A DNA stretch of 64,000 nucleotides from Okamejei kenojei (Eukaryota): positions 7,378,001-7,442,000 of the forward strand of contig CM069173.1 in the NCBI GenBank assembly GCA_035221665.1, read 5' to 3'. This document shows, in pieces, positions 1 through 60,100 of the stretch (within the stretch, counting starts at the first letter, position 1; each line of letters opens with the position of its first letter). Position numbers: made by a program.

Positions 1-3000
1 CTTCCCCCTTTTACAACTTGACGTCATTTTAGATAGTGATGGACTGCTTTACATCCGCAGTACACAAGTGTGTGGGGAATATTCTAATCTCCAAGGTTTC
101 CCAATTCCTTCCCACATATAAATTGAATCTATCACGAGGAGTTGCTTAATTTCTTGTTTGGTTTCGTATTTCGATGCAACCATCTATATTTGACCAATGT
201 TGCAACTGCGTCCTTGGAGACTCCGTGGATATAAAGGGAGAGCACTGCGGGAGTTCTCGACAGTTTCATTCTGGAGGGCACAAGCTGACTCGTTTCCTGC
301 AAGAAATATGCAACCAACATTTTACCATGTCCAGAAAATATACTATTTGACCCTTGCCGTCATTGGTGTTCCGGGTAAGATATTGCAAATGTTATGTTGG
401 CTGGGCTTATATTTACTGGAATTTAGAAGATGTGAGGGGGATCTTATAGAATATATAAGGCTAAATGCAGGAAAAATGTTCCCGATGTTGGGGGAGTTTA
501 GAACCAGGGGTCACAGTTTCAGAATAAGGGGTAGGTCATTTAGGACTGAGATGAGGAAAAAACGTTTTCACCCATAGAGTTGTAAATCTGTGGAAATATC
601 TGGCATAGGAGGCAGTGGAGGCCACTTCACATGATGTTTTCAAGGCGGAGTTAGATATAGCTCTCAGGGCGAATTGACTCGATGAATATGGGGAGAAAGC
701 AGGAACGGGATACTGATTTGGGATGATCAGCCATGATCATATTGAATGGCGGTGCATACCGAAGGGCCGAATGGCTTCTCCTTCACCTATGTTTCTTTTG
801 TTTCTATGTTTCTATGTTACTATACTGTGTCAGACTAACTCCTGCTTCAGGTTTGCTAACGTTCTTTTCGAAAATGACTTTGAATCGTGGTCAAGTTTAG
901 CAATTATTGCCACTCACTGTTTTGTCTGGCGAGGGGGTGAGAGTTAGTCAACATCTGTCGATATTTTGCTGATCGAATGGTATAATAAAGTTTTGAATAT
1001 GGAAATTACCGCATTGGAGTCTGTCTTAGTTTATTTCAGCTTGGTTTTTAGTTTAGTGGTACAGCGCGGAAACAGACCCTTCAGCCCTCCGAGTCCGCAC
1101 CGACAGCGACCCCCGCACACTTACACATATCAGGGACGGTTTACATTTATACCAAGCCAATTAACATAGTACGTCTTTCGAGTGCGAGAGAAAACCGAAG
1201 ATCTTGGAGAAAACACATGCAGGTCACGGGTAGAGCGTACAAACTCCGTACAGCCAGCACCGTAGTCAGGATCAAACCCGTTGTAAGGCAGTCGCTCTAC
1301 CGCTGCGCCACCGTGTTAAGTCATCCGTTACAGCAATGCGGTCGGCGGTGTGGTTTCGCAGCGGCTGTTGTTGTGGTCTATTGGTGATTTAGGTTTGGTG
1401 GTTTAGGACATGCCCAGGGAGTAACCTACATGTGTAATCACAACACGTTTGTAGCTGACACATTGTGCAACTTCAGAACGAATGCAGGACAAGAAGAAAA
1501 GTTTTGCCTCGTGGATGGTAGCTACCGGGTTCGAGTATCTGGGAGTGCTCCCATCCACATTCGCGGTGTGTAACATGTGGGCAGTGGGTGGATTTGGCGG
1601 AGAAGAAATAATGTCAGTTGGGGACAGAAAGGAAACGTATGACGTGCAGTGAGCGTATTTCTTTGTAATTGTAGTTTGTGTAAGTGTAACCCGGTCTTAT
1701 GCAGGGGTGATATTTGTGATGTTAATAATGAGCTTGGATAAGTTGCAGATAGGATGCGGGAATTTAGCTTTTTGAATGTATGTACACATACAAGGAATTT
1801 GCCTTGGTGCTCCACTCGCCAGTGACAACACGACCTACAGTAAACCATTAAGAATAAAACATTAAAACATTAAAATTTTAAGAAAAAAAACAGTATAGAT
1901 TAAACATGTGCATGAAATAAAGTACCAAAGCTAAAGGGGCTGCAGAGTTTGGTTATTGAGTAGAGCTACTGCTTGTAGAAAAAAAAGCTGTTTTTATGTC
2001 TGTCTTTGCGGCTTAGAATGTCCGGAGTCGCCTTCCTGAAGGAAATGATTCAAAGAGTTTGTGGCCAGGTGAGAGGGGTCAGAGATGATCTTACCCACTC
2101 TCTTACTGGCCCTTGCAGTGTACAGTTCGTCACTTGGGGGAAGGTTTGCAGCCAACAACCTTCTCAGCTGATCGAACCATTTACTGCAGCCTCTGGATGC
2201 TTGGTGGCTGAGCCAAACCAGACCATGATGGAGAAGGGTGAGGACAGACTCTACGATGGCCGTGTAGAATTGGACCATGATATCATATATATATAATATT
2301 TATTGGAAAACGATACCCCCATCAACAGAAATTATACAGAGAATCTTGGGAAAAGGAATTAGGCCAAATAATAAGACCAGAAATATGGGATGAAAGTTTA
2401 CAACATATACATTATTGTTCATTAACGCTAAACATTCTCTTATACAGTTTAAAATATTACATAGATTACATTACTCTAAATCTAAATTACATAATATTTT
2501 TCCAAAAATATCTCCAATATGTGACAAATGTCAAATTTCAGAAGCAAATTTGACACATTCATTCACATAACTGCATAAAAATTGTAGAATACTGGAAGGA
2601 AATATTTAAAATAATCTCGACTGTTATCAATATAAATATAATCCCTGACCCAAAGTTGATATATACTTGGAATAATTGAAACTGACCAATTAATAACAAC
2701 GAATCAAAGAACTTTTATTGATTATGGTTTAATAATTGGGAAAAAATTAATATTAAAATTTTGGAAAGGCCCTGCATTCCCAACAATCAAAAATGTGGAA
2801 TATAGAAATGTCGGAGACACTTCATTTGGAGAGATTGAGGCTTGTCCTTATGGATAGGTTAGATCTCTTCAGATGTATTGAGTGGTTCTCCATATATTAA
2901 ATATTTACAGGGTCATAAATGGTTCGGCGCGAGAGAACCTGACTGAGGCCTGGATATTTGAGTGGATGAAGAGATACATATAATAAATCATGAATATATC

Positions 3001-57100: not shown

Positions 57101-60100
57101 AACCAATTACAGCGTAAAGATATTCGATAAGGGAATAACGTTTAGTGCAAGGTACAGCCAGCAAAGTTCGATCAAGGATAGTCTGAGGATCACCAATGAG
57201 GTAGATAATAGTTTTGGACCGCTCTCTGGTTCATAAGGTCATGCTGTGGGAGCAAAATTAAGCCATTCGGCCCATAAAGTCTACTCTGCCATTCAATCAT
57301 GGCCGATCTATCTCTCGCTCCTAACCCCATTCTCCTGCCTGATCCCCACAACCCCATACACCGGCCTTAGTTAAGAATCTATCTCTCTCCGCCTTAAAAA
57401 TATCCATTGACTTGGCCTCCACAGCCGTCTGTGGCAAAGAATTCCACAGATTCACCACCCTCTGACTAAATAAATTCCTCCTCATCTCCTTCCTAATGGA
57501 ACGTCCTTTAATTCTGAGGCTCTGACCTCTAGTCCAAGACTCTCTAACCAGTAGAAACATCCTCTCTACATCCACCCTTTCACTATTCGGTACGTTCCAA
57601 TGCCCTCACCATCCCCCCCCACTCCCCCCCCTCCCCCCCCCCCTCCCCCCCACCCCTCCATTCTTCCAAACTCCAGCGGTTATGGCAGGATGATCCCGAT
57701 CTATCTCAATGGATAATTCAGCTGTTCTGTAAACTTAAGAGAATTGTGTACAAAAATCATGATTCATCTTTGTTTGTACATCCTTTGAAATCAATGACAG
57801 CCTCTCCCTCAGTTTGGTGAACGAAGATATTTGTCACATAAAATTCGGCCCCTAATCCAAGGTGAACCTTTCACAGAAGCCATTTTCTCCTTAATAAAGT
57901 TCATGAGAAACTACCACATTATTCAGCTTTAAGACCGGCTGCATCAAATCACTTTAGTTTATAGTCTAATTTAGAGATATAGCGCGGAAACAAGCCCTTC
58001 GGCCCACCGAGTCCGTGCCGACCAGCCATCCCCGCACACAAACACTATTCTACACGCACTGGGGGCGCTTTACAATTTTACAATTTTTACCGAGCCAATT
58101 AGCCCACAAAGCTGCACGTCTTTGGAGTGTGGGAGGAAACCGGAGGACCTGGAGAAAACCCACGCAGGTCACGGGGAGAATTCTGGACCTTCCTTCAGTC
58201 CGAAAGTAGAAAGGCGGGAACTGGAAGTAAGAAAATGGTTTTCTACCGGAGATGGAGGTCGAGAGGCTGGTGAGAGGACCGGGCAGTCTTCTGATAGCAG
58301 CTGGGAAGAACCATTACTCGGTTGATCCTCGCTGTTAAGCTATGTAGTGCCCGGTGGGAGAATAGGTTTTTTTTAAAATGGAAACCTGTTTTAATAAAAT
58401 GTAGCACTTGGAAAATGTTCAAGTACCTTTGCATTACAAATAAAGTTCCATAACATTTGCAGACTCGGGTGCAATTTAAATGCATTAAATAAAATGGACA
58501 TTTGTAGGTTATCACAGATTTAATTTAAAAAGCAAATGGCTGAAGTGTAATATAACCTTTTACATTTTAGTAATGATAACCTCATAAATAACGCGCTGTT
58601 AACGATTGTGGAATAAATAACTCAGTACTGCTCTGAATTAACACCATTAAAAGACGAGTAAACACTTGCATTGATATTTGATGGAATGCGAATTCCAACT
58701 TCTGCTCAAAATTCGTACCCAAAAATGTACATAAAACAGACGCCGTGGGAGCTATCCTAGGGCTACAGTAAGTGTGTGTGCCCATGGATAGTAATCTATA
58801 TAATCTAATAGGCCTGAAACGTTGCCTATTTCCTTCGCTCCACAGATGCTGTTGCACCTGCTGAGTTTCTCCAGCACTTTTGTCTACCCTCGCTGTTAAC
58901 TTTGCTCCGAATCAAATCCTCAATTTGATTTCACTTTTCCCGCAGTGAACCTGGTGACCATCACGATCCTGTCGCGGGGAAAGTGCGGCCTCTCCAAAGG
59001 CGTGACCCGCTACCTGGTGTCCATGGCGTCGTCCGATCTCCTGGTGGTCATCCTCGACCTGATACTCAGACAGATCCCCATCGCTTTCCCGAGAGAGTTC
59101 CGGCTGCTGCGGTCGTTCCCCGCCTGCAACGTCCACGCCGTGCTTCTCTACGCGGCCACCGACTGCTCCGTCTGGTTCACGGTCACCTTCACCTTCGACC
59201 GGTGTGTGGCCATATGCAGCGCCAAGCTGAGGAGTAAGTATTGCACCGAGCGAACGGCGGCCATGGTGCTGGGGACCGTCAGTGTGCTGAGCTGTTTGAA
59301 GAACATCTTCTGGTACTTCCTGCTGAGGGGGTGGTATTACCTTCTGAACAACCCGTGGTTCTGTTACGGGAGGAAGAATGTTCTCTATTCCCCAATCTGG
59401 GCGACGATTGAGTTCCTCCATTACCTCGTCACCCCAGTGCTTCCCTTCATCCTGGTCCTGCTGCTGAACGCCTTGACCATCAGACATGTCTTGGTGGCCA
59501 GCCGAGCCCGCAAGAGGCTCCGGGGACCCGGCAGCGGCGAGCAGAGTCCCAGAGATCCGGAGATGGACAACCGCAGGAAGTCCCTCGTTCTGCTGCTGGT
59601 TATTTCGGGCAACTTCATCAGCCTGTGGGCCCTCTTCACGGTTTATTACGTGTGGGCCCGCCTGAGGTACCTGGGGCCCGTGTCTACCTTCCCGCCGTGG
59701 ACGGTGCGCGAACTCGGCTTCATGCTGCAGCTGCTGAGCTGTTGCACCAACACCGCCATCTACGCCGCGACCCAGAGGAAGTTCAGGGAGCAGCTGAAGG
59801 AGGCGGTGAAACCCCCCCGGGCTCTCCTTGTGGAGTGCGCTCGCTGCGCTCGTGGGCTGAGAAACCCCCGGCAGTGAACAAAATTGGACATCGAATTCTC
59901 CAATTCTAGATAACCTCCAACTATCCCCACCCCCACTCCCTCCCTCACCTACCACCTCCCTCCGCCTAAACCCCCGGGATCTCTCCCCTGTGCACCACAA
60001 GGACTCCCATCTATTTCTCCTCACTCCTACTAATTTCCTCCCTCTGGCTTCACAATCTGCAACTCTGACATGTCTCGCCCCTTCTGCTCTTACCTCTGGG

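Follow-up and report, generated by a model that had tools for sequence, protein, structure and literature searches.

The window, a stretch of 64,000 nt from the skate Okamejei kenojei, contains one functional and two dead genes of a large clade of class A receptors that are only distantly related to GPR139, and the family represented by these genes is probably chemosensory in a wide sense. We put the probability of this reading at roughly 55%. The three loci are co-oriented, and in each of them a small exon 1 ends in GTTCCNG/GTAAG (phase 1, within TM1) and the acceptor has the same position. In the window, there are two occurrences of the junction motif GTTCCNGGTAAG, which coincide exactly with the exon-1 ends of loci 1 and 3, and none of 100 shuffled sequences contained any match to this motif (0/100). 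The parts of the three loci are:

308..374, plus strand: exon-1-like piece of pseudogene locus 1 (ATG present, 22 codons and one further base, GTAAG donor)
13915..14922, plus strand: exon-2 remnant of pseudogene locus 1, with several frame changes and many stops
16837..16908, plus strand: exon-1-like piece of pseudogene locus 2, placed by alignment, with the ATG lost, indels, and the GTAAG donor kept
21008..21971, plus strand: exon-2 remnant of pseudogene locus 2, in a more advanced state of decay than its counterpart in locus 1
53898..54036, plus strand: exon 1 of the intact gene (locus 3), 46 codons plus one base, for the N-terminus and the outer portion of TM1
54037..58945, plus strand: 4909-nt intron of the intact gene, bounded by gt..ag
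58946..59877, plus strand: exon 2 of the intact gene, which comprises the stop and encodes the receptor from N1.50 in TM1 through the C-terminus

Locus 3, which extends from 53898 to 59877 on the plus strand, is the sole intact gene of the three, and its two exons have a coding length of 139 + 932 nt, that is, 356 codons plus the stop. It starts with the ATG at 53898, and an in-frame stop is located 33 nt upstream. Exon 1 ends in phase 1 just before N1.50 (donor gtt ccc g/gtaagg), the acceptor of exon 2 is cgcag/tg, and the phase-1 intron that splits the coding region in TM1 is rich in dispersed repeats, as indicated by repeat matches inside it. Exon 2 is contained in a stop-free frame from 58900 to 59874; elsewhere in the window, no GPCR-like stop-free frame of at least 180 aa was found. 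The N-termini of five of the six full-length relatives tried matched exon 1 in TBLASTN, that of P0001, a protein of another skate, with 95.7% identity over 46 aa. Exon 2 is 91% identical to P0001, which also has an intact frame, in the database search and 94% identical over 298 aligned columns. The third copy is indeed GC-rich, as had been proposed, with a GC content of 0.608 in exon 2 and a GC3 of 0.845, compared to 0.47–0.48 in the remnants of loci 1 and 2 and 0.44 in the window.

Both loci 1 and 2 are pseudogenes of considerable age, duplicated in tandem. What is left of exon 2 in locus 1 is colinear with positions 64–337 of the family profile, but three frames are needed to follow it; its identity to family members in TBLASTN is about 26–38%, and its longest open piece returned no match when searched against a database. 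Taken alone, the exon-1-like piece at 308..374 matches the family profile weakly (E 4.3), and its ATG may be other than the ancestral start. The colinearity of the exon-2 remnant of locus 2 with the profile is weaker than that of locus 1; the region of the FTFDR motif is still recognizable, and the piece 21264–21461 matches the profile with an E-value of 8.5e-7. In both loci, an AG acceptor persists at the position homologous to that of locus 3 exon 2. Self-BLASTN aligned 136–2277 with 16649–19176 (77–80% identity), 3707–4167 with 20175–20674, and 13881–14824 with 20967–21971 (72%). The earlier note had described three co-oriented two-exon genes, with copies 1 and 2 as close tandem duplicates that each have one large exon 2. 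The third locus, with its intact frame of 356 aa, and the phase-1 junction shared by all three agree with that description, but the other two loci are pseudogenes, and in place of one large exon 2 they contain remnants that require all three frames and are riddled with stops. The duplication is in tandem as described, but “close” is a generous term for DNA identities of 72–80%.

Three further features lie between the loci:

27967..28466, no strand: assembly gap of 500 N, intergenic and outside every receptor locus
49144..50222, plus strand: remnant of a non-LTR retroelement reverse transcriptase, with partial matches to Pfam RVT_1 below the cut-off (E 1.5e-5 and 2.1e-3)
51739..52829, minus strand: second retroelement reverse-transcriptase remnant, truncated, upstream of locus 3 exon 1

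The gap, which had been singled out as the first point to check, is the only run of N in the window and touches no gene part: it is separated by about 6 kb from the last remnant of locus 2, which precedes it, and by about 25 kb from exon 1 of locus 3, which follows it, and no receptor-family matches were found at its flanks. ORFs listed across the gap were rejected as runs of X. Because continuity across the gap cannot be known, the distance and the relative orientation of loci 1 and 2 versus locus 3 rest on the scaffold join. The first reverse-transcriptase remnant, truncated at its 5' end and with one frame change or more, lies in a virus-like stretch between the loci, outside the receptor genes. 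One piece of the second remnant matches RVT_1 with 41.3 bits (cut-off 29.6), and its other pieces were assigned by eye; as this remnant is spread across four overlapping open pieces, it must contain at least three frame changes. Given the scaffold join, the window exhibits birth and death, with one intact gene and two dead copies co-oriented within 60 kb. With a single intact gene, the window itself is no cluster of working genes.

Exon 2 of the intact gene matches Pfam 7tm_1 with 65.1 bits (cut-off 30.5; E 8.8e-18) over profile positions 2–260 of 260; a match to Srx was sub-threshold. With motifs numbered by the alignment to GPR139, the gene has N1.50, D2.50, C3.25 with its partner Cys in ECL2, DRC, P5.50, W6.48, and N-T-A-I-Y, and lacks Y3.51, P6.50, and P7.50. 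AF2 was run on the 356-aa orthologue P0001, which has 94% identity to the window gene over the aligned part and stands in for the window protein; the resulting model includes seven long TM helices and H8 (pLDDT 80.1, pTM 0.71). Foldseek with this model yielded at least 500 class A matches, the best of which were peptide and chemokine receptors, for example, GPR15, OX2R, CCKAR, and CXCRs, in a flat ranking (E 2.5e-7 to 2.8e-6 over the first 50); GPR139 was not singled out by the fold search. By its sequence, the intact window gene is a class A GPCR.

Of 3835 candidates in the database search with the window protein, 1836 matched at E<=1e-3. The top 120 of these matches all have E-values below 2e-120, and all 119 that are named come from elasmobranchs (119/119). 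Within the best 120 of the 1836 matches, Heptranchias and Heterodontus are represented by 48 distinct 90%-clusters each; this sample comprises the paralogues most similar to one skate gene and is dominated by these two sharks. The profile search gave 131 clusters at 50% identity (E<=1e-30), and scores within the family range from 420 to 643 bits. The clade seems to be very large and confined to sharks and rays, and we found no published description of this elasmobranch receptor family in the literature. The nearest neighbor was conspecific for 48 of the 48 Heptranchias and 45 of the 48 Heterodontus sequences, a pure batoid clade (14–16 of 17 sequences) was present in all 93 bootstraps, and the window gene was grouped with P0001 in 93/93. 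Judged from these groupings, the paralogues form lineage-specific clades. An expanded family evolving by birth and death, as the earlier note had envisaged, is supported by the number of copies, the lack of one-to-one orthology to GPR139, the lineage-specific clades, and the presence of one intact and two dead copies in the window.

It might be argued that the “family” is an annotation artefact, namely, mostly dead or mis-annotated DNA that was amplified together with the surrounding repeats. Two of the three window loci are pseudogenes, the loci are surrounded by retroelement remnants, and the gene models of P0008 and P0046 are chimeras of a partial and a full copy, one with an N-terminus that, by eye, is retroelement-like. 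Because some database gene models of the family are chimeric, protein counts overstate the number of clean genes. However, 107 of the 120 best matches have lengths of 290–420 aa, and the activation motifs are each retained in 116 to 121 of 121 sequences (D2.50, 121; C3.25, 121; ECL2 Cys, 121; D3.49, 120; R3.50, 120; P5.50, 120; W6.48, 121; N7.49, 121; Y7.53, 120), which argues for purifying selection on many paralogues. Moreover, the window gene has the 94% identical orthologue with an intact frame in another skate, and its high GC3 contrasts with the dead copies, which are near background. An artefact is therefore very improbable.

The relation of the family to GPR139 is distant. Among solved structures, GPR139 is the best relative of the window gene, with 26.6 bits for the single sequence and 52.5 bits for the family profile (E 3.9e-13; next match 34.1 bits), and more distant relatives likewise match GPR139 with just 47–60 bits. 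Because this match is weak when set against the 420–643 bits within the family, orthology to GPR139 was rejected, a judgement made by scores. The designation “GPR139-like” holds insofar as no solved receptor is closer, but, given the weak score, in a loose sense alone. Human GPR139 (7VUG–7VUJ, 9M42) shares with the family the class A fold, W3.41, the aromatic residue at 3x33, His 5x43, W6.48, and the absence of a proline at 7.50. The family differs in having DRF/C instead of DRY, in lacking P6.50, and in comprising many copies in lineage-specific clades. GPR139 has two coding exons. According to a review, its gene shows a high degree of conservation among vertebrate taxa (PMC12208981).

The nearest group outside the family (141–159 bits in the profile search) is a roughly single-copy gnathostome gene that is also annotated as “probable GPR139.” This sister gene is found in teleosts, sturgeon, bichir, coelacanth, amphibians, turtles, and sharks (for example, P0244 of Odontesthes, P0240 of Latimeria, and P0345 of Scyliorhinus), and no mammalian or avian sequence is among the 120 matches listed. 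It is 24–33% identical to the family, and its match to GPR139 is also weak (51.5 bits). Like the family, it has W3.41, Y3x33, the disulfide cysteines of C3.25 and ECL2, and N7.49/Y7.53, whereas it differs by ERF instead of DRF, by Q at 5x43, and by the R kept in the 6x51 column.

The ligand pocket of GPR139 is described as a hydrophobic sub-pocket of F3x33, H5x43, and W6x48 and polar residues that bind the amino-acid backbone, namely, E108 (3x32), R244 (6x51), and N271 (7x38) (PMC5430874). The sub-pocket is retained in the family (Y/F3x33 in 111/121, H5x43 in 113/121, W6x48 in 121/121; Y, H, and W in the window gene). In the columns mapped by alignment to the polar sites of GPR139, hydrophobic residues are found, L at 3x32 in 112/121, F/L at 6x51 in 112/121, and F at 7x38 in 108/121 sequences (L, F, and F in the window gene). 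An amino-acid-sensing repertoire that works the way of GPR139 and GPR142, with aromatic ligands such as L-Trp and L-Phe, would be compatible with the retained sub-pocket, with W3.41 and the missing Pro 7.50 common to both, and with the distance between GPR139 and the next solved relative (52.5 versus 34.1 bits), but not readily with the loss of all three polar residues. In addition, as the pocket core hardly varies among the paralogues, the repertoire could not discriminate amino acids there. We consider this explanation improbable, and the GPR139-type aromatic amino-acid sensing suggested in the earlier note is weakened.

The paralogues vary mainly on their extracellular side. Column entropy averages 1.34 over the extracellular half and 0.64 over the intracellular half (Mann-Whitney p 2.4e-10). 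In a comparison with the single-copy sister gene as a control, the ratio of extracellular to intracellular entropy is 2.24 for the family (107 sequences) and 1.11 for the control (90 sequences), whose variation is even between the two halves, at a similar overall divergence (0.69 for the family, 0.61 for the control). The variable parts are the N-terminus, ECL1–3, and the outer ends of TM5–7; the deep pocket shows conservation. In the outer half of TM3, hardly any variation is seen (0/14 columns with entropy >1.5), unlike in odorant receptors. Some of the extracellular variability could stem from relaxed constraint instead of selection for new ligands.

Because the intracellular half is nearly invariant, all paralogues would be expected to signal via the same transducer. 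They would differ in the ligand recognized at the extracellular vestibule, which would be built from the variable parts above the conserved deep aromatic pocket (Y/F3x33, H5x43, W6x48). Such a layout would be the design of a ligand-diversified sensor, so that the family would most likely be chemosensory in the wide sense; the label “sensory” is applied by analogy with other large GPCR expansions. Olfactory, gustatory, or solitary chemosensory cells would be the candidate sites, with evolution by birth and death. Free aromatic amino acids bound in the GPR139 manner are unlikely ligands; peptides or other larger or amphipathic compounds that carry an aromatic or hydrophobic group as an anchor would be a better anatomical fit.

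Alternatively, the family could be expanded but non-chemosensory, and consist of internal peptide, neuromodulator, itch, or immune receptors similar to MRGPRs or chemokine receptors, with endogenous or pathogen-derived ligands. Variation in the loops and outer ends of TM5–7 around an invariant TM3 core resembles that of peptide- or protein-binding class A receptors, and the top Foldseek matches are peptide and chemokine receptors. Furthermore, the brain receptor GPR139 itself reportedly responds to peptides as well (PMC5218887). However, the Foldseek ranking is flat, and at least 48 distinct 90%-clusters per species were found in two sharks within the best 120 of 1836 matches alone. To our knowledge, the known non-sensory GPCR expansions are all far smaller than that. 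We regard a non-chemosensory role as rather unlikely and prefer chemosensation in the wide sense.

Cartilaginous fishes have keen chemical senses, yet very few classical odorant receptors. For the catshark, 5–8 genes are given for each of OR, ORA, and TAAR, with V2Rs dominating the repertoire (PMC6368271), so that the family would fill a known repertoire gap. Two sharks each have at least 48 distinct members, and with its diversified extracellular face and birth-and-death turnover, the family readily suggests itself as a candidate for the receptor diversity that is lacking. A bolder and tentative proposal is that sharks and rays possess a seventh vertebrate chemoreceptor family, new to science, in which each species would have dozens to hundreds of receptors, all of class A, and which would have originated from a GPR139-related orphan, would supply the diversity lacking in the tiny OR/TAAR/ORA sets, and would sense peptides or larger waterborne cues via variable loops above a fixed aromatic pocket. 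If not sensory, the family would still be among the largest unexplained GPCR expansions in vertebrates. In either case, at least three things go by the name “probable GPR139” in databases: GPR139 itself, the conserved single-copy relative, and the elasmobranch expansion.

The canonical vertebrate chemoreceptor families are OR, TAAR, V1R/ORA, and T2R. The elasmobranch family differs from them in that it belongs to none of them by sequence, with Pfam 7tm_1 alone above the cut-off, in that a phase-1 intron in TM1 interrupts its coding region, and in that it varies in the loops and the outer parts of TM5–7, not in TM3. Like them, it is large and of the rhodopsin type, has undergone lineage-specific expansions, and includes pseudogenes beside intact genes.

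Three genes, each with a small exon 1 and a large exon 2, had been read in the window by the earlier note. One of them, locus 3, is intact, with 356 codons plus a stop and an exon junction in phase 1, whereas exon 2 of the other two, loci 1 and 2, is dead. The elements of the three loci, and the two retroelement reverse-transcriptase (RT) remnants that lie between locus 2 and the locus 3 gene, are:

Receptor loci and RT remnants (window positions, strand in brackets)
308-374 (+): locus 1 exon-1-like piece; ATG, 22 codons plus one base, then gtaag
13915-14922 (+): locus 1 exon-2 remnant; family-profile positions 64-337, all three frames needed, stops in each
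16837-16908 (+): locus 2 exon-1-like piece; ATG lost, indels present
21008-21971 (+): locus 2 exon-2 remnant; little kept besides the FTFDR region
49144-50222 (+): RT remnant 1; partial RVT_1 matches below cut-off, 5'-truncated, at least one frame change
51739-52829 (-): RT remnant 2; RVT_1 41.3 bits (cut-off 29.6), truncated
53898-54036 (+): locus 3 exon 1; 139 nt, ending in gtt ccc g followed by gtaagg
54037-58945 (+): locus 3 intron, between exon 1 and exon 2
58946-59877 (+): locus 3 exon 2; 932 nt, preceded by cgcag

The start ATG of locus 3 is the first in frame after a stop 33 nt upstream. The gene was searched exon by exon, with window 58900-59874 or 58948-59874 as the exon 2 query and with local TBLASTN and Pfam for exon 1, and its database orthologue P0001, a 356-aa protein listed under the skate Rhinoraja longicauda, served as the full-length stand-in for its product. 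P0001 is colinear with both exons, with identities of 95.7% for residues 1-46 and 90.6% for residues 38-353 (TBLASTN). Over 298 aligned columns the locus 3 gene and P0001 are 94% identical, and the next-best relatives, skates and sharks alike, reach about 69%. The GC3 of exon 2 is 0.845, and the GC content of the intron is 0.456. A 404-aa ORF at 58912-60126 (-), antisense to exon 2 and without a Pfam match, is most simply a by-product of this GC3 value.

The product is a class A GPCR. Exon 2 scores 65.1 bits against Pfam 7tm_1 (cut-off 30.5), and the AF2 model of P0001 (pLDDT 80.1, pTM 0.71) has seven long helices and a helix 8. A Foldseek search of the PDB with this model returned at least 500 class A GPCR structures whose ranking was flat, with peptide and chemokine receptors at the top and GPR139 absent from the first 50 matches; since class A receptors are not told apart in this way, Foldseek was rejected as a family identifier. 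The ESM Atlas offered just 'probable GPR139' and generic 7tm_1 clusters. In sequence comparison the best-scoring solved relative is GPR139, with 26.6 bits (E 3.4e-5) for the single sequence and 52.5 bits (E 3.9e-13) for a 36-sequence profile, for which the next match has 34.1 bits. With scores as weak as these, the label 'GPR139-like' that the genes had been given is right as a lead but wrong as a statement of orthology.

Loci 1 and 2 are pseudogenes. The predicted exon 1 of locus 1 is indeed present as sequence at 308-374, and the 12-base junction GTTCCNGGTAAG is restricted to the exon-1 ends of loci 1 and 3 (0 matches in 100 shuffles). The AG of the exon-2 acceptor is likewise retained at the homologous site in both loci. 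Neither has a stop-free exon-2 frame of at least 180 aa, and a stop-to-stop scan, TBLASTN and the family HMM on six-frame pieces recovered decayed remnants only. The two loci are an old tandem duplication: in a self-BLASTN, 136-2277 matches 16649-19176 (77-80% identity), 3707-4167 aligns with 20175-20674, and 13881-14824 matches 20967-21971 (72%). The exon remnants, at 72%, are no more similar to each other than the non-coding flanks, at 77-80%, which suggests that the receptor copy had either lost its function before the unit was duplicated or lost it soon afterwards. The locus 1 intron contains about 9.4 kb of extra DNA relative to locus 2, within 4167-13881, in which no LTR, terminal or inverted repeats were found and whose open pieces, as far as tested, contained no Pfam domain. 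When the longest open stretch of the locus 1 remnant was used as a database query, 35 candidates came up, with 0 matches and no closer intact relative of the two loci. Among 387 proteins compared by local TBLASTN, the database proteins P0008 and P0046 had the best summed scores against the remnants; with only about 30% identity and chimeric gene models, they were rejected as close relatives.

The sole N run of the window, at 27967-28466, does not affect these gene structures: no exon or reading frame relies on it. The receptor-related sequence nearest to it ends at about 21971 upstream and begins at 53898 downstream, its flanks have the appearance of ordinary non-coding DNA, and among all six-frame open pieces of at least 20 aa, the best family-profile match in its neighbourhood has an E value of 3.2. 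Long 'ORFs' spanning it are runs of X and were rejected. The adjacency and shared orientation of loci 1 and 2 with locus 3 do depend on the join across the gap.

Both RT remnants lie outside every receptor locus and look non-LTR by eye; short fragments of their repeat families turn up again in introns and flanking DNA of the receptor loci. RT remnant 2 is split across four overlapping open pieces, which implies three or more frame changes. When 46 open pieces of the window, from about 100 aa upwards, were scanned with Pfam, the scan detected only 7tm_1, three RVT_1 and one sub-threshold DUF7607 match, with no gag, integrase, envelope or capsid domain. The DUF7607 match (E 0.032, 14.8 bits, cut-off 27) belongs to a 152-aa ATG ORF at 44417-44875 (-). 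A satellite array at 37131-43836 (76-bp unit, about 90 copies, 371-bp higher-order period) creates long spurious ORFs on both strands, one of which was tested and had no Pfam match. A minisatellite occupies 47021-47365 (30-bp unit, about 11 copies, also readable as 60- and 90-bp periods). A tRNA-like Rfam match at 31494-31581 (+), which scores 34.5 bits (gathering threshold 29) and is not called by ARAGORN, may represent the head of a tRNA-derived SINE.

The intact gene belongs to a large family. With locus 3 exon 2 as the query, 1836 of 3835 candidate proteins matched at E<=1e-3. The best 120 of these all have E<2e-120 and 47-91% identity, and all 119 that carry a species name are from elasmobranchs: Heptranchias perlo (48), Heterodontus francisci (48), Pristiophorus (7), Rhinoraja (6), Leucoraja, Mobula and Narcine (3 each) and Carcharodon (1); one is unnamed. 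Searched with a profile, a library of 1.84 billion 50%-identity representatives contained 2110 matches at E<=1e-3, 391 at E<=1e-10 and 131 at E<=1e-30. Such raw protein counts are inflated and represent upper bounds, because some database models are chimeras of neighbouring copies: in P0008 and P0046 a partial copy of the family is joined to a complete one, and P0046 additionally has, by eye, a retroelement-like N-terminus.

The nearest outgroup identified is a conserved gnathostome gene, represented by the distant full-length protein P0244 and also by P0240 and P0345, that is present about once per species. It occurs in teleosts, sturgeon, bichir, bowfin, coelacanth, amphibians, turtles, catshark and zebra shark, with no mammal or bird among the 120 matches listed. 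Databases give it the name 'probable GPR139' as well, yet it scores only 51.5 bits against the solved GPR139; it is 24-33% identical to the expanded family. It looks like a separate orphan receptor that has so far escaped study.

Nine members of this single-copy group served as the root of a neighbour-joining tree built from 121 family sequences. The locus 3 gene and P0001 were paired in 93/93 bootstraps, and a pure batoid clade, also recovered in 93/93, held 14-16 of the 17 batoid, window and unnamed sequences. The species-pure clades were large (median 43/48 for Heterodontus, 22/48 for Heptranchias), and the nearest neighbour came from the same species for 48/48 Heptranchias and 45/48 Heterodontus sequences. 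The expansion is, as far as can be judged from a distance-based tree of the sequences most similar to one skate gene, lineage-specific and subject to turnover.

The fold and activation residues hardly vary among the paralogues. Across the 121 sequences, D2.50, C3.25, the ECL2 Cys, W3.41, W6.48 and N7.49 are each present in 121, and D3.49, R3.50, P5.50 and Y7.53 in 120 each; 107 of the best 120 matches are 290-420 aa long. From these motifs and lengths, together with the high GC3 of the intact exon and the near-background GC composition of the two dead copies, we read purifying selection on many family members. Two dead loci and two chimeric models might also be taken to mean that the family is an artefact of dead DNA; set beside these motifs and lengths, that is very improbable.

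Variation among the paralogues is unevenly distributed over the receptor. When 48 family sequences were placed on the helices of the AF2 model, the mean column entropy was low in inner TM3 (0.16), ICL1 (0.30), inner TM7 (0.40) and inner TM6 (0.49) and high in the N-terminus (2.19), ECL3 (2.11), ECL2 (1.94), ECL1 (1.67) and outer TM6 (1.60), with means of 1.34 over the 146 positions of the extracellular half versus 0.64 over the 162 positions of the intracellular half (Mann-Whitney p 2.4e-10). The extracellular/intracellular ratio was 2.24 for the family (107 sequences, mean pairwise identity 0.69) but 1.11 for the single-copy control on the same column map (90 sequences, mean pairwise identity 0.61). 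ICL3, ICL2 and inner TM4, which are among the most variable parts in the control, are held in the family. This contrast suggests that the paralogues share a single conserved signalling side and differ on the side that faces outward.

Pocket columns were mapped via the family-profile alignment to the solved GPR139 chain and counted over the 121 sequences:

Pocket residues of GPR139, the family and the locus 3 gene
F109 3x33: family Y 81/121 or F 30/121; locus 3 gene Y
H187 5x43: family H 113/121; locus 3 gene H
W241 6x48: family W 121/121; locus 3 gene W
E108 3x32: family L 112/121; locus 3 gene L
R244 6x51: family F 81/121 or L 31/121; locus 3 gene F
N271 7x38: family F 108/121; locus 3 gene F

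As the pocket core is near-constant among the paralogues, ligand discrimination must, judging from these columns, sit higher, in the loops and outer TM5-7. We infer a scheme in which the ligand would be bound at the variable extracellular vestibule of each receptor, a hydrophobic or aromatic moiety would reach the conserved Y/H/W pocket, activation would proceed via the conserved W6.48, DR(F/C) and N-T-x-x-Y switches, and all receptors would couple to one common G protein through intracellular loops that hardly vary.

Given the family's size, turnover and outward-facing diversity, we estimate at roughly 55% the probability that it detects a varied, probably external chemical world. Peptide receptors stand among the leaders of the flat structural ranking, and the receptors might instead have an internal peptide, itch or immune role; weighed against the size of the family, this is somewhat unlikely. 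For sharks, the accessible text of the standard repertoire paper covers only OR, ORA, TAAR, V2R and taste receptors (PMC6368271). No description of a GPR139-related elasmobranch expansion was found in the literature searched, which took in few subscription journals and no supplements, and an earlier description may exist; the sole paper containing both 'GPR139' and 'cartilaginous' uses the terms in unrelated places. Public annotation already has entries for these genes, and the name given there is misleading.

According to a mutagenesis study, GPR139 has a deep hydrophobic region, F109 3x33, H187 5x43 and W241 6x48, and a polar region, N271 7x38, R244 6x51 and E108 3x32, which binds the charged part of L-Trp and L-Phe (PMC5430874). 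Amino-acid sensing in the style of GPR139 could draw on the first region; with the second replaced, it is distinctly unlikely for this family. Compared with GPR139, the family has thus inherited the aromatic anchor site, whereas the amino-acid backbone site is gone.
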